Shown piece after piece: positions 3,149 through 29,661 of a DNA stretch of 64,000 nt. A program made the translations under genes and the position numbers. Source of the stretch: a virus. How positions within the stretch are numbered: the first letter of the stretch is position 1; each line of letters opens with the position of its first letter. The stretch lies in IMG/VR virus record IMGVR_UViG_3300045131_002362, positions 22,709 to 86,708 of that record, one strand, 5' to 3'. The notes beneath the pieces are model-generated. The model was not told the origin of the DNA. It saw only the letters and a list, made by a program, of their open reading frames with translations, and did no database searches.

Positions 3149-5656
3149 TTATCCGGCCAGGCCGGTCTTCTGTCTCCAGTACGACATGATGCCGTTCGTC
3201 TCGGCAACGTCCAGCCCGCACGACATGCACGCATCGCGCAGTCGGCGACCCCATGAGGACAGCGGCTGCACGCCGCGCTCCTGGCACGAGAGCACCACGT
3301 TGGCGACGGCCTTGACCGCCGTGTTGTGCCGCGTGTTGTTCTCGGCGTTCTGGATGCGCTCGCATGACTTGTCAACGACCACTTCCATAAACCGCTCGTT
3401 GCGGATCTGCTCGTCGGCGGTATTTTCCCGCTGCTCGCACGGCTTCAGGCTCGCGCGGCTCACGGCGAACGTCGGCGCCTTCCACTCGAACGGAGCGGGC
3501 AGCACGCCGCCCAGCGCCTCGTCTGTGACCCGGCAGTCCGGATCATACGCCAGCGTGCGCCCGACAGTCGGCAGCCGCGTGCCGTCGTCGCTCGGCATGC
3601 AGAGGCGCTCCTCGCAGGCCGTCCGTATTGTGCGGTTCGCCGCCTGATACGTGTCATAGTCCTTTATGCCGTCGCCGGCGTTGAAGATTGCCCATGCGCC
3701 GTCGCCACGGGATGACAGCGCGCCGATTACGAAGCCGGGCATCTCGGCCAGCGCGTCGCGCACCTGCGCAGGCGTCAGCCCGTTGCCCTGCTCGGCGATG
3801 TGGTCGAAGTCGACGTGCGTGAGACCCGTGTATCCGACGATATTCTCGACGCGGCTGAAACGGTCGAACTTCGTGCCTGGGAATATCTGCCGCAGGCACA
3901 GGCGCTTGTCCGCCTTGCCGGCCCGCACGGCCTCCGTCGACTTCTTCAGCGCCTCGTCGCCAGTAATGTACGCCCACAGCGCCGCCACGCCCATGCGCTC
4001 GCGCTCAACATAGAATGCCCGCATACGCGGCTTGTACTGCATCGCGAGCCCTGACTCAACGGGCGCTTCGGCCACAGGCTCTGCCGTTTCCTCATCCGTG
4101 TCCTCAGTGGGCGGCTCCGTGTCGTCCGGAGAAGGATCACACACCGGGGGCGGCGGAATCGGATCTGCCGAAAGCGGCTCGACCCACTCCTCGCGGGCCG
4201 TGCTCATCTCGGCGATCGCCTTGAACCGGTACGCGTCCGGGGACCAGGAGAAGCCCTTGTCCGTCCGGTAGTCGCGATAGTCGCTGTACAGCAGCCCGCC
4301 TGCCGCCCCGCTGTTGACCACGAAGTAATCGTGATCGGCGGGCGACAGGAGATGCTGCGCGTCGATCGTGCGCCGGGCCACGGCCACGGGCCGCCAACCC
4401 TCGTCCAGATAGCGCTGAGCGCGCACCAGAAGCGCCCAGCCGACGCAGGTGCGAAGCTCGCCCATCGTCCAGCCGGTGCGCTCCTGCACGCCATCCAGCA
4501 TCTTGCGCAGCGACGTGCCTCCGTCGCTCACTTCCGCAGCGACGAAGAACTCAACGCGACGCGAGCGCGGACTGTCGATCGGCAGCGGCGAAAGATGGTT
4601 GGACGACAGCAGCTTCAGCGAGTTGTCACGGACAGAGCGCTTCGCGACATACTTCTCCTCGGCGGTCTTCCATCCCGCGTCGGCGAACGCCTTCACGTCC
4701 TCCGCAGTGTACCGCTCGCTCGCTGAGGACAGCGCCTCGGTGAGCACGCAGACGGACGACTCGTACAGGGGCAGCAGGTTGCCGCCGGCAAGGGCCGTGG
4801 TCGGCACCGTTACGACGGCATCCCTCGGCACCAGCGCCGCCAGTGACTCATGCAGCAGCGACTTGCCCGTACCCTGCCCGCCGTTCGTCGACGTGAAGCA
4901 GAAAAGCTTGAGGCAGCGGAAGCTGCCGAAGTCGCGCAGCGCCAGCAGGTGCGCTCCGGCGTCCAGCACAAACGCCTGCTGCTTGCGCAGGGCGTTCTCT
5001 GGATCGCCGTCCGTGATCGTGCGTGCCAGGACCTCGTCCAGGATCGCTTCGGCGTCCACGCCGCTGCCGTACTTGGTCGGCTTCTCGGCGATAACCGGCG
5101 GTCTGCCGTAGGCGCAGTTGACGCTCTTGCGGCCCATCACGTCGATGATCTTGTCCGCCCACATGGCGCGGTCGGAGGCGACCCCGTAGAGGTCGTAGTC
5201 CGGGCGGTGCGTCGACCACCACGTCCCGAACGGCACCGGCATGGCCTCTGTCTTGCCCGTCTTTTTATCCGTCCTCGTGCCGCGCACCCATTCGTGTACG
5301 TCGGCAGGCGCAAGCGTGGCCGCGTCCTTGACCGACCAGAAGCCGACCGTGCGCTTCCCATCCTCCATGACGGGGTAGTAGGTCGAGCAGAACAGGTCGG
5401 CGAACTCCGGCAGCCCGTCCGCACACGGCTGCGGGTCGCCCGGCGCGATCGCCTGCGCCACGGCTCTGCTGGACCGGCACACCGAGGCCAGCCGCAGCAG
5501 ATCCGAGCGCTGCGAGTCCGACATCTCGCTGGCGTTTTGAGGTAGTGAGGCGCAGAGGTCGGTGATCTTCGACGCAAAATGCTTGGCGCGGCTGCCGGAG
5601 CGCAGCGCCGTCTCGATAATCCCGTTTGATTTTGTCATGTCGTTCCCGAGGATCAA
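3149..5656 (-). CDS. helicase-primase fusion: SF3/DUF5906-like NTPase followed by a BT4734/VirE-N-like AEP primase domain
   Basis: Walker A GGQGTGKS, VCVLTE, EEKYVAKR and LLSSNH are SF3 helicase motifs; Pro/acidic linker; then YTGLTHVDFDH and SSRGDGAWAIF (AEP-like) and a helical PriCT-like tail. Confidence 0.8.
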   Translation of the reverse strand: MILGNDMTKSNGIIETALRSGSRAKHFASKITDLCASLPQNASEMSDSQRSDLLRLASVCRSSRAVAQAIAPGDPQPCADGLPEFADLFCSTYYPVMEDGKRTVGFWSVKDAATLAPADVHEWVRGTRTDKKTGKTEAMPVPFGTWWSTHRPDYDLYGVASDRAMWADKIIDVMGRKSVNCAYGRPPVIAEKPTKYGSGVDAEAILDEVLARTITDGDPENALRKQQAFVLDAGAHLLALRDFGSFRCLKLFCFTSTNGGQGTGKSLLHESLAALVPRDAVVTVPTTALAGGNLLPLYESSVCVLTEALSSASERYTAEDVKAFADAGWKTAEEKYVAKRSVRDNSLKLLSSNHLSPLPIDSPRSRRVEFFVAAEVSDGGTSLRKMLDGVQERTGWTMGELRTCVGWALLVRAQRYLDEGWRPVAVARRTIDAQHLLSPADHDYFVVNSGAAGGLLYSDYRDYRTDKGFSWSPDAYRFKAIAEMSTAREEWVEPLSADPIPPPPVCDPSPDDTEPPTEDTDEETAEPVAEAPVESGLAMQYKPRMRAFYVERERMGVAALWAYITGDEALKKSTEAVRAGKADKRLCLRQIFPGTKFDRFSRVENIVGYTGLTHVDFDHIAEQGNGLTPAQVRDALAEMPGFVIGALSSRGDGAWAIFNAGDGIKDYDTYQAANRTIRTACEERLCMPSDDGTRLPTVGRTLAYDPDCRVTDEALGGVLPAPFEWKAPTFAVSRASLKPCEQRENTADEQIRNERFMEVVVDKSCERIQNAENNTRHNTAVKAVANVVLSCQERGVQPLSSWGRRLRDACMSCGLDVAETNGIMSYWRQKTGLAG

Positions 5657-6318: not shown

Positions 6319-7473
6319 CTATTCGTATCTCGACGGACGACCACCGAAGGTCTTGTCCACGAGCAGCTTCTCGTTCGCGTCCCAGCGGGCCTTGACGGCC
6401 TCGACAACCTTGGCGATCAGCCCGTTCGTCTCGACGAACAGCGCCGCGTCCTTGCCGACGTACTCGATACCGATCTTGCGCAGGTCGTAGCCTTGCGGCA
6501 CTATCTTTTTCTTTCTGCCGCCCTCCTCTTCCTTCTCTTCCTCCTCGTCCTTCTTTTTTCCGTCCACGGTGCCGTAGACCTTCTTCGCCTTTTCGTCCTT
6601 CGGCGGCGGATCAGGCTTGATGACGCCCTCGGACCAGAGCCAGTCGAGGTTGGCGCGGGTGTCGTCGATGCCGTAGGCGGGCATGATGGGGAACCAGACT
6701 TCGCGGGCCTTACCGTTGGCCTTGCTGCGGGCAATCTTCGCGATCGTCCAGTCGCCGACCTTCACAGTGCCCTCCTTGATCTGCCCGCCCTTGCTGAGCC
6801 ACATTTCGATGAAGGCGAAGAAGCCGAGCGCCTTGCCGCCGCCACGGATCTTCGGTGCGAACATGGCGCCCTTGCCAATAGCCTCGGCAGCCTGCGACAG
6901 GTAGATTAGGAAAGAGCCGTTCATCGGCAGGTTGCCCGCGAGGCGGCGCAGAAGGTACTTGTTCGCCACGGCCCGCAGCGCAAGCGCGCCGCCGCTGTCG
7001 CCCTTCGCATCGTTAGCGTACTCCTGCTCGGCGATGAGCGTGTCCATGCTGTCGATCACGAAGAACTGCGGCTTCTTCTCCATCCACGCGAGCATCTTGA
7101 GCGCCAGGTTTTGTGTCGACCATTCCTTGTCGTACGGGATCGGGATGATCTCAAGCGCAGCAGCGAACTTCTTACCGAACAGCGCCGCCGTGTTGAAACA
7201 GTAGGCGTTCTCCGCATCCAGCAGCTTGTAATCGAAGTGATTGCCGTAGCGCTTGAACGTCTCGGCCATCGACGCGATCGCCTGCATCGTCTTGCCGGCG
7301 TTCCTGTCGCCGATGCTGTTGACGCCCTGTCCAGCGCGGCAGAAGCCGTCCGTTGTGTCGGTACACGCGAGGTCGAGAAGCGTCGAGCCGCTCGGGATAA
7401 TGAGCCCAGGAGCGGCGGTCGCGATCTCCATGACGCTCTCGGCGTCGATCGCGTTGGTCTTTCTCTTTGCCAT
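6319..7473 (-). CDS. RecA/UvsX-like recombinase
   Basis: IPSGSTLLDLA, Walker A GDRNAGKT, DAENA, Walker B FVIDSM, IYLSQ, GGGKALGFFA, YGIDD are all RecA-family motifs. Confidence 0.9.
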   Translation of the reverse strand: MAKRKTNAIDAESVMEIATAAPGLIIPSGSTLLDLACTDTTDGFCRAGQGVNSIGDRNAGKTMQAIASMAETFKRYGNHFDYKLLDAENAYCFNTAALFGKKFAAALEIIPIPYDKEWSTQNLALKMLAWMEKKPQFFVIDSMDTLIAEQEYANDAKGDSGGALALRAVANKYLLRRLAGNLPMNGSFLIYLSQAAEAIGKGAMFAPKIRGGGKALGFFAFIEMWLSKGGQIKEGTVKVGDWTIAKIARSKANGKAREVWFPIMPAYGIDDTRANLDWLWSEGVIKPDPPPKDEKAKKVYGTVDGKKKDEEEEKEEEGGRKKKIVPQGYDLRKIGIEYVGKDAALFVETNGLIAKVVEAVKARWDANEKLLVDKTFGGRPSRYE

Positions 7474-20314: not shown

Positions 20315-20571
20315 GCCCGCACCCCCACGGCAGCCTCGACGGCCAATACCGCCGCCTCGGCTTTACGATTGGCCTCCTCGGCCTCGGCGGTGAGCCGCAC
20401 GGCCTCGGCGCGCTTCTCCTCGACCTTGGCGCTCAGCTCCTCGACAGTCGAGCAGCCGTATTTCTCCTTCGCCTCCAGAAGCAGCGCCGCGCGCTTCTCG
20501 TTGTTCTGCCGGTTGCGCTCGCTGGCCACCGCCAGCCTCTGTTGCAGCTCGTTCAGGTTCGCCATAGTCAT
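20311..20571 (-). CDS. short coiled-coil protein (candidate middle piece of split SbcC)
   Basis: MTMANLNELQQRL... is entirely heptad-like; start overlaps the stop of the SbcC N-half. Confidence 0.55.
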   Translation of the reverse strand: MTMANLNELQQRLAVASERNRQNNEKRAALLLEAKEKYGCSTVEELSAKVEEKRAEAVRLTAEAEEANRKAEAAVLAVEAAVGVRA

Positions 20572-21950
20572 TCTCCCTTGTTCGCGTGCCAGTGCTTTTG
20601 TTCGGCTCCGCATTCGGGGCACACCGGATGCAGTCGCTTGTATTCCTCGATCTCCTCGCTCAGCGCGGCGACCGCGCTCCCCAAGAAAATCCTGTCGACC
20701 TCTGTTTTGCCGATCGATAAAACGAGCGCTTCCATCCCGGCCAACTCTTGCGCACAAAACTCAAGATCGCATGTTTCGTTCTTGGCGGAAAGGCATCTCC
20801 AGTCGGCCTCTCGGATGCCCACGGATTCGTCATGGCTGACGCGAAGCAAAGCCAGGTGCAGGTTCTCCATCTCGAAGATCTCGGACTCGGACATCTCTCG
20901 CTTCTCGCGCGCCGCCTGCGCCTGCGTCAGCATCAGCGCCGCCCTGCGTGGCGCGATGCCCGCGTCTCGCGGCAGCGCCGTCAGCCCGGCCAGTGTAGCA
21001 GCCATGCGGCCCAGCACGGCCTGCTCGCCGTCGCGCAGTACGACCGCCATATCCAGATCGACCATCGTGTCCTTGGCCCGCAGCGTGTCCGCTTTAGCCG
21101 GCAGCCGCGCCAGCTCGTCGGCGATGCGCGACAGGTCGGCTCTCTCAGCAACCGACGCCTCGCTCGCCTTTGCGGCACGCGAAGCGACTACGACTGCGCA
21201 ACTGGCAAAATCGACAGCCTCCCTGTGATCCGGAAGCACCTCGACCAGCCTATCACGGATAGAGACGAGCATGCCTACCAGCTCCTGCGCGTCCACAGCC
21301 GCCGACTCGGCGTATTCCGCGTCGATGACGGCCTCGGTCGCCGCGTCCAGCCCGGCGTACTTCGCGCCTGCCGCCTCCTCGCGCTCGATCTCCGCTTGCG
21401 CAAGACGCAGCTTCTCGTCGTTCGCGTTCTTACGCGTCCGCACCTCAGCAAGCGCCGCGTCGATCTGCACGAGGCCCACGGCCTTCGAGAGAACCTCCGC
21501 GACGCGCCCGTCCGTCTCGCAAAGCAGGAAGTTGCCAGTTGAGGCCGGTGGCCGCGCGCCCTGCAACTGGATGGCGTGAGGCGACAGGCGCAGCAGCGTG
21601 GCGACCTCCTCGGGCACCTCTCGGCCGATCGCGTTCAGCGGTTGGCCGTCGATCTCATACTCGTTCTTGCTCTTGCCGCGTCGGCGCACGATGCTGTGTT
21701 CCTTGCCATCGTCGCCCTCGATCAGCACGTCGACCTCGCTGCACGCGCCGCGCTTGGCTCCGTGACGCAGCAGGTCGATGCCTGCCGGAAGGTTGCGGAA
21801 GTGCTGATTCAAGCCGCGCACAATGGCGCTCTTGCCGCTTTCGCTTACGCCCGTGAACACGGTCAGCCGCTCGGCGAAGTCGAACCGGCTGTCGACATGA
21901 CTCAGCACATCCGTGAATCTAGCACTTTTAAGTTTCATTCGTTTTCTCAC
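20568..21950 (-). CDS. SbcC/Rad50-like ABC ATPase, N-terminal half ending at the zinc hook
   Basis: SHVDSRFDF, Walker A GVSESGKS, Q-loop IQLQ, long coiled coil, terminal CPECG. Confidence 0.85.
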   Translation of the reverse strand: MRKRMKLKSARFTDVLSHVDSRFDFAERLTVFTGVSESGKSAIVRGLNQHFRNLPAGIDLLRHGAKRGACSEVDVLIEGDDGKEHSIVRRRGKSKNEYEIDGQPLNAIGREVPEEVATLLRLSPHAIQLQGARPPASTGNFLLCETDGRVAEVLSKAVGLVQIDAALAEVRTRKNANDEKLRLAQAEIEREEAAGAKYAGLDAATEAVIDAEYAESAAVDAQELVGMLVSIRDRLVEVLPDHREAVDFASCAVVVASRAAKASEASVAERADLSRIADELARLPAKADTLRAKDTMVDLDMAVVLRDGEQAVLGRMAATLAGLTALPRDAGIAPRRAALMLTQAQAAREKREMSESEIFEMENLHLALLRVSHDESVGIREADWRCLSAKNETCDLEFCAQELAGMEALVLSIGKTEVDRIFLGSAVAALSEEIEEYKRLHPVCPECGAEQKHWHANKGE

Positions 21951-22349
21951 TTTTCAAGGCGCGACGCTCGTCAGCCAACCGCCCGATTGTCTTGACGAAG
22001 ATTGCGCCCTGATGCTTGTTGAGCCAATATTGAAGCTGCGCCAGTTCTTCAACGGAGCAGTCGTCCAGATCCTTTGTTGAGATCTCGCTCAGCTCACGAA
22101 TCGCAGCGTGAACATTCGCCGTCATGCCCCGTGCTCCTTTTTTGTAAACAAAACGTACTGCGGAGAACCGCTGTCTTCGCCGCTTACGGCCCGCCCGTCT
22201 CGCACTTCAAAGTGCGACTCTTTCGGAATCGTGAACCCGGCATCGGTCAGTCGGTCGATCACTCTTTCAATAGCACATTGAGCATCGGCAGCTTCTATAT
22301 CGGCAAAGATGTTCAATGGTGTGATCCTGTGCATGCCCATTACAAAACC

Positions 22350-23417
22350 TCACTTTTTATTGTAAGCACAGACGGGCACGGCGCCCTCCGCACGGGGCAG
22401 AGTCACGTCGGCGAACGAGGGCCACGCGGAGCGCGGCACGCCGTTCGAGTCCATGAGCGCCGCCATATCCTCCGGAACGCCCGGCTTGGGCCACGCCTTC
22501 GCCGACAGCAGCAGGGGCGGCATCGACGGTTCGCCATCGTAAGGCAACCGCACCAGCCGCAGGTTGCGCCGCAGGATCTCTGCGCCTGCATCGCTGTTGA
22601 GCGCCGCGCGGGCCTTCGGAACGCTAACGTTGAACGACCGGTTGGCCAGAAACTCGGCGACCGTCTTCTCACCGCATCCCGGAACGTTGCCAACGTTGTC
22701 GCTCTTGCACCCGCCCACGCACTTCGCGGCCACCACATCGGCGATCGCGATCTTCGTGTGCTTCTCGATATCATCCGCGTCGCACAGAACGCCCGTCGTC
22801 ACATCCGCCCACTTCACGCCCTCCAGCACTACCTGGTGCAGGTCGTGGTCGTTCGACACGATCACGACGGGCTTGTCGTACTTCGGCTTTCCGTCGACGT
22901 GGCCGTCTGTCTGCTGCTTCAGGCCGAGCACGAACGACGCGATCACGTCGTCGCTCTCGTAGCCGTGAACGCAATATCCCTGCACGTTGTAGCCTGGAGC
23001 GTACACGCAGCGCAGCAGCCGCTTGATCTCCTCCTTGCAGCCTACAACGCGCTCCTCCTTCTCCGTCTTCTTCTGCGTGCCCCTGTTGCCCTTGTAATCG
23101 GCGTACAACTGCTCGCGCCGAAGGCTGCGGCTGCTGTCAAACGCCATGACCGGAGCGCACGCGAAATTGCGGCACGCCTCGGCAACGTCCAGCATCACAT
23201 CGGCGGCGACGGCGTGGGCGATGCGCCCAGTGTCCGCACCGCAGCGCTTGCAGTAGTCGTCAGCCTTCGCCCACATGAGCCTGTACATCAGACACGATGT
23301 GTCGAAGAAGGCCGGGCGGACGCGCGCCTCCCGAAGGACACGCGCATTCGCCTCGCCAGCGCCGCCGTCCGCATAAGACGGGCGTGGCGCTAGGATCTCG
23401 TCGATCACGGGGGTCAC
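22350..23417 (-). CDS. 5'-3' exonuclease / flap endonuclease (T4 RNase H/T5 D15 type)
   Basis: AFDS, YADYKGNR, YESDDVIAS, SNDHDL, KSDNVGNVPGCGEKT (H3TH motif). Confidence 0.9.
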   Translation of the reverse strand: MTPVIDEILAPRPSYADGGAGEANARVLREARVRPAFFDTSCLMYRLMWAKADDYCKRCGADTGRIAHAVAADVMLDVAEACRNFACAPVMAFDSSRSLRREQLYADYKGNRGTQKKTEKEERVVGCKEEIKRLLRCVYAPGYNVQGYCVHGYESDDVIASFVLGLKQQTDGHVDGKPKYDKPVVIVSNDHDLHQVVLEGVKWADVTTGVLCDADDIEKHTKIAIADVVAAKCVGGCKSDNVGNVPGCGEKTVAEFLANRSFNVSVPKARAALNSDAGAEILRRNLRLVRLPYDGEPSMPPLLLSAKAWPKPGVPEDMAALMDSNGVPRSAWPSFADVTLPRAEGAVPVCAYNKK

Positions 23418-23730: not shown

Positions 23731-24879
23731 CTACTGTGCTGTCGCCGCATCGGCAGGTTTCGGGATCGTCATCTGCCCAGCGACAACGATCGTGGACTGC
23801 GTACGGCAGATGCCAACAGACACCTCGCCGTCGGCCGTCATTGTGAAGTCGCCGCCCAGCTTGGCGAAGCGCGATACTATCGGAAGAGAGAATCGTACCT
23901 CATCGCCAGGCGGAAGCTCGACAGACGCATCGAACTCGGCGACCGGCTGTCCTCCGGACATCATCGCCACGCCAACCGAAGAGAACGTCAAAACGCCGCC
24001 GAACGAGTCGTTCGCCCCGAGGCCAAGAGCAGTGATGTCCTCCTCTAACTTACGAAGCGGAGCGGCAGCCATGAGTGTAACCGACTCCCTGCTGGCATTG
24101 TGCATCACGACGCGAAGCAGATTCGGGCGTTCCGCCGCAGAGATCTTCTCGACGAAGGTCGTTCCGTCCGAGAGCCTGAACGTGTGGAACGTAGCGCCGG
24201 CATCGTTGATCTCCCGGACGTACCCTGTGATGTCGAACATATTCACGAGCGACGGGTCGAAGCTGAACATCTCAGGAAGCGACGGGACCTTGTGCATAAT
24301 CGCGCTCTTGCTGTCCGTAGAACCCAACCATCCGCCGTCGTCTGCCAAAAAGGCGTACACGCGCCTCAACGTGGGGCGGTTGTCATCGCGCTTTGTGAAC
24401 TCGATTAGCAGCTTGCCGATGTCCTTGGACACATGCTCGCCCAGCGAGAACTCTAGGATACCTTGCGGAGCCTGCGGCGAAGGCATCTCGTTAGACTCGA
24501 ACGTGGCCGAGTGGATCGTCGTTCCTTTACCCTTGACGTGCAGGGCGTGCGTCAGGGGGTCGATCCAGGCCGTGCCCGTGCCGTCCTCCGGCAGCCGCAC
24601 GTTGGCGTAGGCCCGCAGCGCCTTGGCAGCGTTTGCGCCGCCGAACGCATTGTCGAACGGGAAGCACGCGCCCTTGGGGAACATGGACAGAACAGTGTCT
24701 ACCCACTCCTTATCGGCGTCGTAGAACACGTTGACGCTGCCTCCGCTCTTCGGCAAGATTCCGTACACGCAGCCGTTCGCTGCGAACACGATCGACGTGC
24801 CGCGCTTCATCGCCAGCTTGGCTGTCCGCGCCATCCACTCGGGATTGAGCGTCTTCTTCTCTTTCCTGATAATCTTCAC
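23731..24879 (-). CDS. divergent DNA sliding clamp (beta-clamp-like)
   Basis: 382 aa; FTKRDDNRPTLRRVY and STDSKS resemble the beta-clamp D.SRP.L.G and ATDG motifs; clamp loader is present in the same arm. Confidence 0.55.
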   Translation of the reverse strand: MKIIRKEKKTLNPEWMARTAKLAMKRGTSIVFAANGCVYGILPKSGGSVNVFYDADKEWVDTVLSMFPKGACFPFDNAFGGANAAKALRAYANVRLPEDGTGTAWIDPLTHALHVKGKGTTIHSATFESNEMPSPQAPQGILEFSLGEHVSKDIGKLLIEFTKRDDNRPTLRRVYAFLADDGGWLGSTDSKSAIMHKVPSLPEMFSFDPSLVNMFDITGYVREINDAGATFHTFRLSDGTTFVEKISAAERPNLLRVVMHNASRESVTLMAAAPLRKLEEDITALGLGANDSFGGVLTFSSVGVAMMSGGQPVAEFDASVELPPGDEVRFSLPIVSRFAKLGGDFTMTADGEVSVGICRTQSTIVVAGQMTIPKPADAATAQ

Positions 24880-24911
24880 TCTGTCTCTCCTTTATTGACC
24901 CATTCTTCAAA

Positions 24912-24943
24912 CATTATATCCGAACACGATCGCTTCCCGCGCC
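24912..24943 (-). promoter_or_regulatory. putative phage middle promoter, copy 3
   Basis: GGCGCGGGAA-N9-TTCGGATATAATG. Confidence 0.75.
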
Positions 24944-25124
24944 GGATTTGTCGACGATTCGGAGCGCCCCGTCATGGCAGCGCTCCGCTCAGCACAGCGA
25001 GCATGATGAGCACGAGCGCCCACACAATCGCTGTGAACAGATACAGTAGGGCAATCCTGACGCATCTCGCCCTATCGCTTAGTTTGTGATTGTGGCTCGG
25101 ATTCACGATTGGTCTCCTTTTCGT

Positions 25125-25367
25125 CTAGCGTTCGGCTTGCCAGTTCATCTCCACACGTTTCAGCATGGCCTCTCCATCGATACCTTCCCTGTCGCACAGG
25201 TGCAGCAGATCGGCCATCAGATCCCCGATGCCGGCTTCGAGCGTATCGTTGGAAAGGTCGTACGCGCAGCCTTCCGCGCACATGGTTCGCTCTGCATTTT
25301 CAGCCCGGGTGCCGTTGCTGGAACAGCCGGGCTCGTGTTTGTCAGGTTTGAACTTGAATTTTGGCAT
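25125..25367 (-). CDS. small helical protein, paralog of the C-terminal half of 31729-32205
   Basis: Shared NG.RA..AE and DLMADLLH.CDR..I.G...W.AER. Confidence 0.65.
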   Translation of the reverse strand: MPKFKFKPDKHEPGCSSNGTRAENAERTMCAEGCAYDLSNDTLEAGIGDLMADLLHLCDREGIDGEAMLKRVEMNWQAER

Positions 25368-25390
25368 TGTGTCGATTCCTTTGTTGTTGG

Positions 25391-26344
25391 TTAAAGCTCT
25401 GGTTTGTAAAAAGCACCTTTCGCGATATTCTCTGCTGCCCACAGGGGCTGAAGATTGCTGTAATGGAAGCACATCAACTGCTGTTGACGCTCCGACAGGT
25501 TAAACGACGCACAGGGCCGGATGTGGTCGACGTGCCAGCCGTTGATTCCGTAGTTGTCCCAAGACATACCCGGCTTCCAAAGGGACTCCAAATGAAGTCT
25601 TAGATAGTTGGCCGAACAACCTAGCATAACGAGCGTGCATTCCGACTTCTTTCGCCCATTCAGCGCACCCTTTAAGCGTCTACTTACCGATCGGATAAGC
25701 CTGTACCCAAAGTCCGTCTGTCGTTTGTTCTTTTTCCAAATACGTTTGTTTTTCCGCACATTTTCTTTTCGCTGTTCGGGTGTGAGGCTGCGGTCTATTT
25801 TGTACTTCGGTATATAAATTTTCTTTCTTGTTCGTTCGCAACCAAGAAATGTCCTCGTTTGATTTGTGCTACGACATTTGCTCGCCAAGGCCAAAATTGC
25901 CACGACATCTTCCGGAGAATAATCTTTGCGGTCTCGTGGTAATTTTCGGCAAAGTTTGCGTATCTTAATTGCAAAATGTTTGGATCGCGTTCCGCTGTTC
26001 AAAACAGCAGAGAGCAAACTTTGCTCGGGTAAAACTCGTGTCTCTTTTCTTCTCTTAGAACCGAGATTTTTAAACCCGAGCGTTTTTGAAACTTCTCTTG
26101 CGCATCTGCATTGAAAAGCCAATTCGTGAATCGCAGAGACCTTGGCGTTTTCGACGGTCAGGATTTCACCGCGAAGTTCTCCGCACAATACCGTGATCTT
26201 TTTCGCGAAGTTTTTGGATCGACTTCCGCTCCTGAGAGCAGCCTCAACTTCGGACAAAAGGAACGGACTCGCCCCGCCGGGTGATGTAGGGCCAGAAGAC
26301 AGGCACCCTCCGTCAGGGGAGTCCGAAATTGAAAGTTCGTTCAT
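25391..26344 (-). CDS. HNH/EndoVII-like endonuclease with two N-terminal repeat domains
   Basis: LGCS..YLRLHLE...GMSWDNYG..GWHVDHIRPCASF...CFHYSNLQPLWA.EN; AT-richer than flanks; start moved to ATG 26344 after AAGGAG. Confidence 0.85.
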   Translation of the reverse strand: MNELSISDSPDGGCLSSGPTSPGGASPFLLSEVEAALRSGSRSKNFAKKITVLCGELRGEILTVENAKVSAIHELAFQCRCAREVSKTLGFKNLGSKRRKETRVLPEQSLLSAVLNSGTRSKHFAIKIRKLCRKLPRDRKDYSPEDVVAILALASKCRSTNQTRTFLGCERTRKKIYIPKYKIDRSLTPEQRKENVRKNKRIWKKNKRQTDFGYRLIRSVSRRLKGALNGRKKSECTLVMLGCSANYLRLHLESLWKPGMSWDNYGINGWHVDHIRPCASFNLSERQQQLMCFHYSNLQPLWAAENIAKGAFYKPEL

Positions 26345-26468
26345 GAGCGTCTCCTTGTTTTTGCCCGACATCACTCGGGGAAAGTCGTTAATCGACCGTC
26401 GATGCAATGGTACAAGGATTCGTTGCGCTTGTCAACCGCCGAGTTTGCAACTTCAAACTTTCTACCGG

Positions 26469-26686
26469 TGTCACAAGAACACCGTCACATTTATACGTAA
26501 GTCGTTGATGTTGTGGTGGTTGTGTTAAGACAGAGGTTGCGAAAAGCACCGTCACAATTGTCACAAGCCGAACGTGATCCCTGTGACAGTATTGGGACGG
26601 TAAACGTCGATTGTCATAGCACTGTCACAAGTCTAAATAAGGCTATATCAAGCACTTATGTATTTGTGACAGTGTTTTGTGACGGT
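26469..26686. repeat. intergenic cluster of GTCACA/TGTGAC motifs (origin/iteron candidate)
   Basis: About 8 copies in both orientations near 26470, 26484, 26551, 26560, 26582, 26624, 26665 and 26678 in an AT-richer non-coding stretch. Confidence 0.6.
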
Positions 26687-26738
26687 CGCTTAATGTTTCA
26701 TGTGAGGGGATGTATACACTCGTATGCACCTGTATACA

Positions 26739-27245
26739 CTAGGACGCACATTCCCGTTCGTGTTTCCGCAAAGCGTCGACGAGTGTGCGCTTCGCCAGCT
26801 CGTACTTGTGCTCGCCGCCCACCTCGTTCAGGAATGCCGCCTTGACCCTGCGCCGAAGCTCCTTCAGATTCGGCCTGTACCAGACGCCGCGATCCACATC
26901 CTCGAAGCGCTCGGCCTCGCGCTGCGCGATCCTGGCCAGCCTTCGTGCCAATGGCCGCAGCCCCGACAAGAACGCCTGCCAGTCGACCTCCTCGCAGGGC
27001 GAGTCGAACACGGCGAGCGTGAGCGCAGCGCCGGACGACTCGTCATCGATGCTCGTGCAGAAGCGCCGCGCCATCCTGCGCCGCTTGTCCTCGATGTTCA
27101 GCAGATCCCGCAGCGCAATCGTCCACGCGAGCCTTGCCCCGCGCCCGGCTGCCAGAAACTCGGCGATCGCGATCTGCTGCATCACCTCCGCAGAACTCAG
27201 GTTCGGGAACCTGTGCAACAACTGGTTGATGTGTCCCTTGTCCAT
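26739..27245 (-). CDS. hypothetical protein, possibly a transcription factor
   Basis: GAGGAGG RBS; helical and Arg-rich; function is inference. Confidence 0.5.
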   Translation of the reverse strand: MDKGHINQLLHRFPNLSSAEVMQQIAIAEFLAAGRGARLAWTIALRDLLNIEDKRRRMARRFCTSIDDESSGAALTLAVFDSPCEEVDWQAFLSGLRPLARRLARIAQREAERFEDVDRGVWYRPNLKELRRRVKAAFLNEVGGEHKYELAKRTLVDALRKHERECAS

Positions 27246-27254
27246 AACGCCTCC

Positions 27255-27518
27255 TCACAGTCCAAGAACGGCTCGTGCCTCGTCGACCAAAGCGCGATCC
27301 TCGTCGTTGTTTGAACAATCTACGTACTGCTCGGCCAGCCTAGCCATGTCTGAGAGGGCGCAGCTCAGATCGTCGATGCGCTTGTCGCGCCACGCCAGCT
27401 CGCAGGCGATGTCGCTCTTCTCGTGTAGCCCTTCAGCCGTCATCGCTTGGACGTGCTTGAAGTAGTACCCGCCCTCGCGGTCCAGCTCCATAGGGTCGTT
27501 GTGCCCGTAGTGTTTCAC
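27255..27518 (-). CDS. hypothetical phage protein
   Basis: GTG start after GGAGG; YYFKHVQAMTAEGLHEKSDIACELAWRD. Confidence 0.6.
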   Translation of the reverse strand: MKHYGHNDPMELDREGGYYFKHVQAMTAEGLHEKSDIACELAWRDKRIDDLSCALSDMARLAEQYVDCSNNDEDRALVDEARAVLGL

Positions 27519-28734: not shown

Positions 28735-29661
28735 TTACAGCGTTTCCACAACTGCCGCGTGTCTGTGATTTTCGATCATCTGCTTCAGACTCAGCTCCCG
28801 GTGCGGAGGCTTGAACGTGAACCCGTTTGTGAACTTCTGGCATTTCGGATTTAGCGGCATGTCGTCCGTCGGCATCACGTACGGAAGATCCTGCTTCAGA
28901 ATAAACTCCGTGATGCTTCCGGGCCTGCCGTCGCTCTTTCGCGGCTTGCGCCAAAGGCCGTGTACCTCGCGGTTGAACGGCTCGCCGGTACACTCGACAC
29001 GCATGATCATGCCGCGCTCCTCCGGCGTCAGCTCGTGAAGCACCTCTTCCGGTTTCTGGTTCGGGCAGAACACGCAGGACGATTTCGGCGGCACCGGCAG
29101 CCCGGCCTCGCGGATCATCTCCTTGCAGATCTCCCGTGTCCAGCCCCAGTCCATGAGCGGGTGCATGTAGTCGAACTTCTTGTCCGGCGCCGTGTGCGCC
29201 TTGTCTGATGCGCGGTTGCGGCGGTAGTCCTCCGTCGCGTCGAAGCCGATCAGCTTCGCGATCTTGCGGCCGGCCGCCCACTCTGATTTGCACGCCGGAT
29301 CTCTGTCCGTCCATTTGTTCTGCGGCACGATCTTCCATTTGATCGTACACGACGCGCGGCCGAACGTAGCGCCGGGCAGCGTGGCGTTCATCACCATGTT
29401 GCCCTCGATCGTCGTGTACGGGCTCTTCGGAGCCGGATTGCGCACTACGGTCACGGGCGGGAAGCCAACTCTGGCGAGCCACTCCTGGATCACCGGAAGA
29501 TAGGCGTACGTCGCCGCCTTCTCGCTGCCCACGTCCGCCCATAGGATGAACGCGGGGCGCAGCCGCATCGCTTCCAGGCCCACCAGCATGGCCGTGCTGT
29601 CGACGCCGAGCCCGTAGGCCACTCCGACAAGGCCGTTATCGAATCGCTCTTTGAGATTCAT
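28735..29661 (-). CDS. PAPS-reductase (adenine nucleotide alpha-hydrolase) family protein
   Basis: PP-loop AYGLGVDST, ADVGSE, CTIKWK, IGFDATE, HPL..WGW, KSSCVFCP. Confidence 0.85.
   Translation of the reverse strand: MNLKERFDNGLVGVAYGLGVDSTAMLVGLEAMRLRPAFILWADVGSEKAATYAYLPVIQEWLARVGFPPVTVVRNPAPKSPYTTIEGNMVMNATLPGATFGRASCTIKWKIVPQNKWTDRDPACKSEWAAGRKIAKLIGFDATEDYRRNRASDKAHTAPDKKFDYMHPLMDWGWTREICKEMIREAGLPVPPKSSCVFCPNQKPEEVLHELTPEERGMIMRVECTGEPFNREVHGLWRKPRKSDGRPGSITEFILKQDLPYVMPTDDMPLNPKCQKFTNGFTFKPPHRELSLKQMIENHRHAAVVETL

Follow-up and report, generated by a model that had tools for sequence, protein, structure and literature searches.

Why do a nuclease and a primase-helicase of one phage carry the same domain, and are the two proteins sent to the same place by it? 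The question is raised by a virus record of 86,708 bp in IMG/VR (IMGVR_UViG_3300045131_002362), of which we analysed one strand of bases 22709-86708, a stretch of 64,000 nucleotides that we call the window and to which all positions below refer. A preliminary description of this DNA had noticed three segments that align without gaps, two in an HNH-type endonuclease and one at the N-terminus of a primase-helicase encoded some 20 kb away. It had read them as a module that brings both proteins to one site, and the nuclease as a domesticated enzyme of replication initiation. We find that the module is a genuine domain, homologous between the two proteins and, within the reach of public data, confined to their two families. 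A different account of the nuclease, to which we give about even odds, is that it would be a mobile homing-type enzyme resembling Odn of phage ICP1, with tandem recognition modules homologous to the N-terminal domain of an initiator.

The gapless similarity in the three segments is real. The copies can be aligned over L11-R54, where 16 columns are invariant, among them those of the pattern C28-x24-C53-R54. Translated in all six frames, the window has exactly three matches to the motif L.SG[ST]R.K.FA.KI: two fall in the open reading frame (ORF) of the HNH protein, and the third lies at the primase-helicase N-terminus. In the HNH-type (His-Me finger) endonuclease, a protein of 317 aa encoded on the minus strand at 25391-26344 from an ATG at 26344, copy 1 covers residues ~30-102 (26039-26257, minus strand; hmmsearch envelope 28-102) and copy 2 residues ~106-179 (25808-26029, minus strand; hmmsearch envelope 106-180). 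The primase-helicase gene (3149-5638, minus strand; likely start the ATG at 5638) carries its copy at residues ~2-74 (5417-5635, minus strand), followed by a variable linker. Compared by BLASTP with the HNH protein, this primase copy matches once with 24 identities over 58 residues (41%, E 2e-12) and once with 22 over 51 (43%, E 2e-11). A profile of the three copies finds no fourth in the whole 86,708-bp genome.

Does this similarity amount to common descent? A profile built from 10 primase N-termini alone matches each of the ten HNH proteins that bear the domain (E 1.5e-34 to 2e-11), and one built from the HNH copies alone matches all ten primase sequences (E 4.3e-22 to 3.3e-18). Neither single-family profile has any other match among 8,748 sequences, a set in which 80 loci that encode nuclease-core relatives were included in six-frame translation. 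Thus, each profile retrieves the whole of the other family, and the homology is robust and not circular: the module is a genuine domain that the HNH protein and the primase-helicase have in common. No nucleotide similarity was found between the HNH and primase copies (best blastn E 0.17), and the difference in base composition that had been reported for the two genes is confirmed, with a guanine-plus-cytosine (GC) content of 0.478 for the HNH gene vs 0.665 for the primase gene.

The domain is remarkably narrow in its distribution. The three-copy profile, run exhaustively by HMMER over 1,835,955,588 representative proteins, a type of search that had been proposed, gave 13 matches at E<=0.001, namely eight HNH proteins, four primase N-termini and one repetitive protein. 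The eight HNH proteins are ~270-370 aa long and have the same C-terminal nuclease core, with one or two copies of the domain. The repetitive protein, P0011, whose match consists of nine stretches of ~5 bits, was treated as a false carrier. Word-indexed searches of 5.8 billion sequences added the full-length primase orthologues P0014-P0018 and the further HNH members P0019 and P0020; each of these searches scored 8,000 candidates and P0002, P0003 and P0005 were not relisted, so that the member counts are lower bounds. There are at least ten domain-bearing HNH proteins, seven with two copies and three with one, and at least ten domain-bearing primase sequences, three of them fragments and seven full-length (58-72% identity, the domain being present in 7/7). 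Outside the window, every member was recovered from a contig of 1-32 kb in Logan, ENA or NCBI; the contigs that encode P0003, P0013, P0019 and P0020 measure 12-14 kb. As far as these data reach, the module is confined to the HNH family and the primase-helicase family. In a tree of 19 copies, 12 of the 16 inner branches are open and the order of events is not readable. The two copies of one HNH protein, P0006, pair together (support 96/95), apart from the first and second copies of the other proteins, which suggests an independent duplication or a gene conversion inside that gene.

What kind of domain is it? AlphaFold2, applied to an alignment of 14 copies, predicts with confidence a four-helix fold (predicted local distance difference test score, pLDDT, 86.1; predicted template modelling score, pTM, 0.67), with helices at 3-12, 17-30, 40-53 and 56-63; such a structure prediction had been proposed together with the profile search. 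Both copies also fold, with high confidence, in a model of the HNH protein, where copy 1 has helices at 30-38, 43-57, 66-78 and 82-88 (pLDDT block means 68-92) and copy 2 at 107-116, 122-134, 144-156 and 160-167 (block means 88-93 over residues 111-170). How the two lie relative to each other is left undefined (pTM 0.39), and the linkers come out disordered. The models thus describe a discrete, independently folding four-helix domain, tethered by flexible linkers. Homotypic docking between the two HNH copies is not supported, as AlphaFold gives them no defined arrangement (pTM 0.39); docking in trans is unaffected by this.

The preliminary description had called the domain unrecognised and so it is, with no recurrent match in Pfam, NCBIfam, the sequences of the PDB or fold libraries. 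No copy of the module matches NCBIfam, and no sequence-profile match was found in the PDB. The PHROG matches of the HNH protein do not reach its N-terminal half, PADLOC returns nothing for it, and the best ESM Atlas score for this half is 0.77, with a structural template modelling score of <=0.36. The copies have other properties in common. Their net charge is positive in 18 of 19 cases, with means of +4.5 in the HNH proteins and +3.4 in the primases. Across the seven full-length primase sequences, pairwise identity is 77% at residues 8-24 (E.ALRSGSR.K...I), which matches the conservation of the SF3 core (75%), and falls to 42% at residues 25-64 and 31% in the linker at 65-77.

The primase-helicase that carries the single copy consists, from the N-terminus on, of the four-helix domain, a conserved region, a nucleoside triphosphatase (NTPase) of the superfamily 3 (SF3)/D5 type, a Pro/acidic linker and a PrimPol/BT4734-like domain. 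The NTPase is assigned by PF19263 (DUF5906), which matches residues 259-367 at 28.4 bits, above its cut-off of 27.6, and which is also present as a precomputed annotation on four of the five orthologues P0014-P0018. The primase half matches phrog_1156, a DNA primase family (E 2.3e-5), and more weakly the BT4734-like_N model (E 0.012) and a PADLOC PrimPol model (E 4.1e-4, residues 581-700). This PrimPol/BT4734-like domain lies at residues ~581-707, after the NTPase, which is the reverse of the usual order. Six full-length orthologues are 58-72% identical to the protein, and a tblastn search of 50,697 phage records was negative. In eukaryotic viruses, origin-binding domains are found N-terminal to SF3 helicases. 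The mechanical ORF is slightly longer than the gene (3149-5656, minus strand), with a TTG start at 5656 and 835 aa, and in its numbering the domain copy lies at residues ~10-75. A gene for a DnaB-like helicase (463-2124) adjoins that of the primase-helicase.

And what does the domain do in a nuclease? The C-terminal ~120 residues of the HNH protein match phrog_1035, labelled 'endonuclease VII' (E 7.9e-10), and phrog_28061 (E 3.9e-7). The basic linker and the nuclease core occupy residues ~195-317 (25394-25762, minus strand) and contain GWHVDHIRPC...NLQPLWAAENIAKG. The HNH beta-beta-alpha-metal motif is defined by its catalytic residues D-H ... N ... N/H. The core conforms to this pattern across the family: in 78 sequences W270, H271, D273, H274 and N297 are invariant and N306 is nearly so. 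Searched against PDB sequences the core has no match, and an Atlas lead for it (score 0.88) points to a cluster in which 52% of the members carry PF01844. Such cores are common in phages, with at least 569 IMG/VR loci encoding relatives that are 38-58% identical over the core. The best 80 of these relatives all match the query from residue 123 onwards only, and neither the four-helix domain nor the N-terminal peptide described below is found in any of the 80. In fact, their N-termini (L004-L083) are of another kind: the majority consensus is a K.C..C...C..C ribbon followed by basic Y...N repeats (Y...N..E motifs), and one nuclease-core relative has a Sigma70_r4/helix-turn-helix (HTH) N-terminus. 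Since the relatives carry other N-termini, the four-helix module fills the variable, presumably target-reading slot of a modular nuclease family. In a profile search the domain-bearing proteins stand apart as a block: the seven of the ten that were listed scored 317-512 bits and the next protein 199 bits.

The domain-bearing nucleases have a second feature of their own. Ahead of the first copy, residues 1-27 (26264-26344, minus strand) form a conserved peptide, and its pattern M..(L).SD[FS][PS].GG...S.P[IT]SP....P occurs in all ten of these proteins. The columns M1, S7, D8, G12, G13, S17, P19, S21, P22 and P27 are invariant in the eight aligned sequences (8/8), and P0019 and P0020 also show the pattern. 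The peptide is predicted to be disordered (pLDDT <50 at residues 1-4, 10-13 and 15-26; block means 46-51 over 1-30) and looks like a docking motif. The mechanical ORF of the HNH gene (25391-26407, minus strand) begins upstream of it, with a TTG at 26407, and would encode 338 aa; alignment to seven homologues with a common M1 indicates that the true start is most likely the ATG at 26344. A protein in the public collections, P0001, is identical to the resulting 317-aa product.

If the HNH protein were an old partner of the primase-helicase in replication, its gene should look at home in the genome. It does not. The GC content at third codon positions (GC3) is 0.506 in the HNH gene and 0.417 in its domain region, as compared with 0.856 in the primase gene, 0.822 in the primase domain region, and 0.786 and 0.858 in the flanking genes of 382 aa and 168 aa. 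The HNH gene and the boxes described below lie in a low-GC island at ~25300-26700, where the GC content is 0.41-0.55 per 200-nt window vs 0.594 for the genome, and which extends over the 330-bp intergenic region upstream of the gene. Directly upstream of the gene, at 26407-26435 (minus strand), is a sigma-70-like promoter sequence, TTGACA and TACCAT separated by a 17-nt spacer; it agrees with the consensus at 10 of 12 positions and is a consensus match only, from a search that found two such sites in 2.3 kb where 1.2 are expected. Foreign composition, intergenic placement and expression signals of their own are traits of free-standing homing endonuclease genes, and the HNH gene shows them, the last as a consensus match.

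The same intergenic region holds a cluster of short boxes. TGTGACR occurs 33 times in the genome and 24 times in the window, and eight of these sites lie within 216 bp at 26469-26684, with the extended consensus tTGTGACRgtg, three in one orientation and five in the other, convergent. This TGTGACR(GTG) cluster stands upstream of the promoter-like site of the HNH gene, inside the foreign-looking island. It is the obvious candidate, on sequence grounds, for a recognition site of the domain.

Contigs of metagenome runs bear on the island as well. In the lake run X6, single contigs are unlike the window before 25204 (over 201 nt) and behind 26926 (over 255 nt), and other contigs of the run bridge both places, which lie 100-230 bp outside the island edges. 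There seems to be a second haplotype in X6 that has the island in common with the window but differs in the flanks. Read by eye on the minus strand, the X6 letters at 25204 begin with ATG and continue as a different coding sequence. In another run, X9, contigs end and start without cover of ~25200-26834 and none joins the two sides; we did not count this as an HNH-less allele. On 24800-27400 Rfam gives a sub-threshold snoRNA match only, and there is no sign of an intron.

How do these pieces fit together? The two-family restriction makes shared targeting, to the same DNA site or the same partner, a natural inference, and this part of the preliminary description stands. Its other part, a domesticated HNH protein serving as initiator or loader and not a selfish one, is not supported. 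It is disfavoured by the GC3 of 0.51 against 0.79-0.86 in the neighbours, the sigma-70-like match and the membership in a modular phage nuclease family; the layout of the two copies as beads on a string (pTM 0.39) also speaks against it, as do X6 contigs whose sequence departs from the window close to the edges of the island. Foreign GC3, promoter match, varied N-termini, loose tandem copies and X6 divergence are instead traits of a mobile homing-type nuclease, and the HNH gene is probably not a resident replication factor.

We envision that the four-helix domain is a target-recognition module, most likely one that binds DNA. The copy in the primase-helicase would bring an SF3-type initiator to its site, and the one or two tandem copies in the HNH protein would take the place of the zinc-ribbon or HTH modules of its relatives and aim the nuclease at a similar site. 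Within the domain, the conserved anchor E.ALRSGSR.K, which runs from helix 1 through the loop into helix 2, would contact the backbone, and the fast-evolving helices 3-4 would set specificity. The identities among the seven primase orthologues, 77% at residues 8-24 vs 42% at residues 25-64, fit such a division into an anchor and a specificity half. The HNH gene itself would most likely be a mobile, free-standing homing-type cassette, made up of the gene, perhaps a promoter of its own and the region of the TGTGACR boxes, and not part of the core replication machinery.

Many observations weigh against this picture of a mobile nuclease with DNA-reading modules. That the module reads DNA is not suggested by any known family: Pfam-A searches by hmmscan with three and then 14 copies gave at E<=10 scattered singletons only (F-box-like in one copy, HTH_38 in one at E 0.026, HEPN_Apea in two, RPW8 in one). 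Foldseek with the predicted domain reached at best E 3.3 in the PDB and 5.3 in BFVD, and VIA-align against 48,161 chains had a best Z of 4.2 and none >=5, its weak rows including HhH-GPD glycosylases (Z 3.5-4.1) and a lambda-repressor-like protein (Z 3.3). Ala, Val and Ser abound in helix 4 of the primase copies, an atypical composition for a base-reading helix. As to a shared site, the phage's own HNH copies, 41-43% identical to its primase copy over the 51-58 residues aligned by BLASTP, are 34% and 31% identical to it in the alignment A4, where foreign HNH copies reach 27-44%; the nearest HNH copy of all is foreign, that of P0003, at 47%. Since the phage's own copies are no nearer to its primase copy than foreign ones, the same sequence specificity is not implied.

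The nuclease and its mobility meet objections as well. Pfam finds no family on the whole HNH protein at E<=1, and at E<=0.01 it recognises the nuclease core in none of the 78 relatives, PF01844, the Pfam HNH model, being absent among the families found in them; the assignment as HNH-type is drawn from the PHROG label, the motif and the Atlas lead. No contig joint across the gene, as expected of an HNH-less allele, was found in four runs. Nor did we find related phage genomes showing both genes: scans of IMG/VR, one of them with the motif pattern, returned no relative, a pattern scan of JGI metagenomes three chance matches, all without the domain, and GTDB genome scans nothing for the primase orthologue P0014 and one chance match, in Solimonas marina. 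Finally, the initiator homologue is in the same genome, so that a nuclease directed at the origin would endanger the phage that carries it, unless the site there is changed or shielded.

Could the domain bind a protein and not DNA? In that case it would dock onto a common replisome partner, such as the single-stranded DNA-binding protein (SSB), a putative clamp (23731-24879), the DnaB-like helicase or the domain itself, a possibility that we regard as unlikely. It would account for the failure to recognise a DNA-binding fold and for the conservation pattern, in which the best-kept part is one compact surface loop, RSGSR.K, identical in both families, that could fit one ligand. It would also give a use to the invariant, disordered, docking-like N-terminal peptide of the HNH subfamily and suit a gene that lies in the replication/recombination arm near UvsX-like, exonuclease and DnaB-like genes. 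But the tandem copies without defined packing give no sign of homotypic docking, and the net charge of 18 of the 19 copies is positive. Moreover, copy numbers of one or two in the slot of the relatives' zinc ribbons and HTH fit DNA-reading repeats better, and foreign codon usage is unlike that of a long-standing replisome subunit. Alternatively, the two proteins may have common ancestry in this domain and no common function, a generic, non-specific nucleic-acid-binding or structural helical domain having been shuffled once, in this phage lineage, between a homing endonuclease and a primase that now act at unrelated places. Phage homing endonucleases do swap domains widely with phage and satellite genes (10.1101/2023.03.23.533998), and the copies are old and diverged: they are 27-47% identical, lack similarity at the DNA level and give an unresolved tree. 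Against this, the E.ALRSGSR.K anchor is strictly kept in both families despite the divergence, and the domain's complete confinement to two families in a search of 1.84 billion proteins argues for a specific role that has been maintained; we think this account a little less probable than docking.

The remaining idea is closest to the preliminary description and, to us, improbable, slightly more so than either of these. The TGTGACR(GTG) boxes at 26469-26684 would be the place to which the shared domain brings both a domesticated HNH nickase and the primase-helicase, with the nick as a loading or priming point; in a variant of this scheme, nuclease and boxes would form a portable origin module that spreads among phages with this primase. 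The exclusive occurrence of the domain in these two families and the eight-box cluster directly upstream of the HNH gene speak for a two-part initiation of this type, and so, weakly, do the equal counts of ten HNH and ten primase members, which are compatible with one of each per lineage. The codon usage does not agree with it, as a GC3 of 0.51 in the HNH gene and 0.86 in the primase gene does not describe an old co-adapted resident, and the boxes themselves lie inside the same foreign-looking island, near whose borders the X6 contigs diverge. The HNH copies, as seen above, are also no nearer to their own primase copy than foreign HNH copies are. A weaker point is that no domain-bearing HNH protein came from NCBI, although P0014 (locus tag BWY66_00553) is on a 32-kb NCBI contig of a metagenome-assembled genome, in lists that are non-exhaustive.

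The mobile homing-type reading has a precedent. Odn (Gp88 of phage ICP1) is a nuclease of the T5orf172 type, derived from a homing endonuclease, with a DNA-binding domain that closely resembles the one in the RepA initiators of PLE, a satellite that parasitizes ICP1; it binds and cuts the satellite's origin, for which the origin iterons are required (PMC8263062). Odn-like nucleases are also described from the coliphages Inny, Muut and Mt1B1_P17, with coliphage homologues that have two RepA_N domains, and the DNA-binding regions of homing endonucleases are portrayed in the same work as 'beads on a string', repeated units shuffled among the genes of phages and satellites, with nuclease genes located at boundaries of genetic exchange (10.1101/2023.03.23.533998). 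As in Odn, a homing-type nuclease core is joined here to a domain homologous to that of a replication initiator, and as in some Odn homologues it comes in two copies. The differences are considerable: the core is HNH-type and not T5orf172, the shared domain has four helices and is not RepA_N, and the partner is an SF3/D5-type primase-helicase in place of RepA. Its gene is in the same phage genome and not in a hostile satellite, the similarity is old (27-47% identity, no DNA identity) where that of Odn is recent, and binding and cutting are predicted here. The only initiator homologue in the 86.7-kb genome is the phage's own primase-helicase, with genome-like codon usage. The target of the HNH protein may lie in other phages.

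How does the domain compare with the repeats of other homing endonucleases and with its own relatives? Like such repeats, it is a small, independently folded module, joined by linkers, N-terminal to the nuclease and variable in copy number; unlike them, it has no Pfam match, is all-helical and poor in cysteine, with no zinc finger, and also occurs in a replication protein that is not a nuclease. NUMOD1, NUMOD3 and IENR1 are examples of tandem DNA-binding modules of homing endonucleases. A generic NUMOD-type repeat without a link to primases, the outcome that had been named as fatal to the idea of shared targeting, is not what we find, as there is no Pfam match and the only non-HNH carriers are primase-helicase orthologues. 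In T5orf172 endonucleases the tandem repeats are the zinc fingers CapR, DUF723 and DUF4397 (10.1101/2023.03.23.533998). With the His-Me finger family of PHROG 1035 and phrog_28061 the protein has the C-terminal core in common, whereas the four-helix domain and the N-terminal peptide are absent from the 80 best relatives. The primase-helicase, for its part, resembles the D5/P4-alpha type in its DUF5906 NTPase, which scores above the cut-off, and in its weak BT4734-like/PrimPol match, and departs from it in that the NTPase precedes the primase-like domain and an additional four-helix domain stands at the N-terminus.

We found no paper on this domain or on an HNH/primase-helicase domain pair; the words 'primase' and 'helicase' do not occur in the main text of 10.1101/2023.03.23.533998, whose supplementary tables S4-S6 might list related architectures. 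We thus describe a new protein domain family, absent from curated libraries and solved structures and limited to two families. The Odn principle, in which a nuclease borrows the recognition module of an initiator, would be extended by it to the HNH class, to an SF3 primase-helicase and to a case with both genes in one phage. Should the module read DNA, it would point directly to the origin-recognition element of this uncultured phage lineage and to a candidate site. A mobile nuclease, in turn, would be a selfish element that aims at a replication origin or rides with it, which would bear on how the replication modules of phages diversify. And if two-part initiation were true, a phage origin would be fired by a nuclease that resembles, and descends from, a homing endonuclease.

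Some features of the genome and the surroundings of the HNH gene remain to be described. The 86,708-bp record has direct terminal repeats of 280 bp and an overall GC content of 0.594, and its sequence recurs across lake and freshwater metagenomes, with 17 runs from 14 studies listed; eight of the 17 contain at least half of the sampled words, and three are possibly the source sample. The runs X12-X17 have small shares only, and we base no statement on habitat on them. A UvsX-like recombinase is encoded at 6319-7473, and the HNH gene thus lies within the replication/recombination arm. The genes that flank the region, at 20568-23417 and 28735-29661 (minus strand), comprise two of exonuclease-like type (phrog_16465 and phrog_107) and one of PAPS-reductase-like type (phrog_424). 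Close to the box cluster, at 26711-26749, are three overlapping direct repeats of ~19 nt with a period of 10 nt and the palindrome TGTATACA, directly after the stop codon of the 168-aa ORF (26739-27245).

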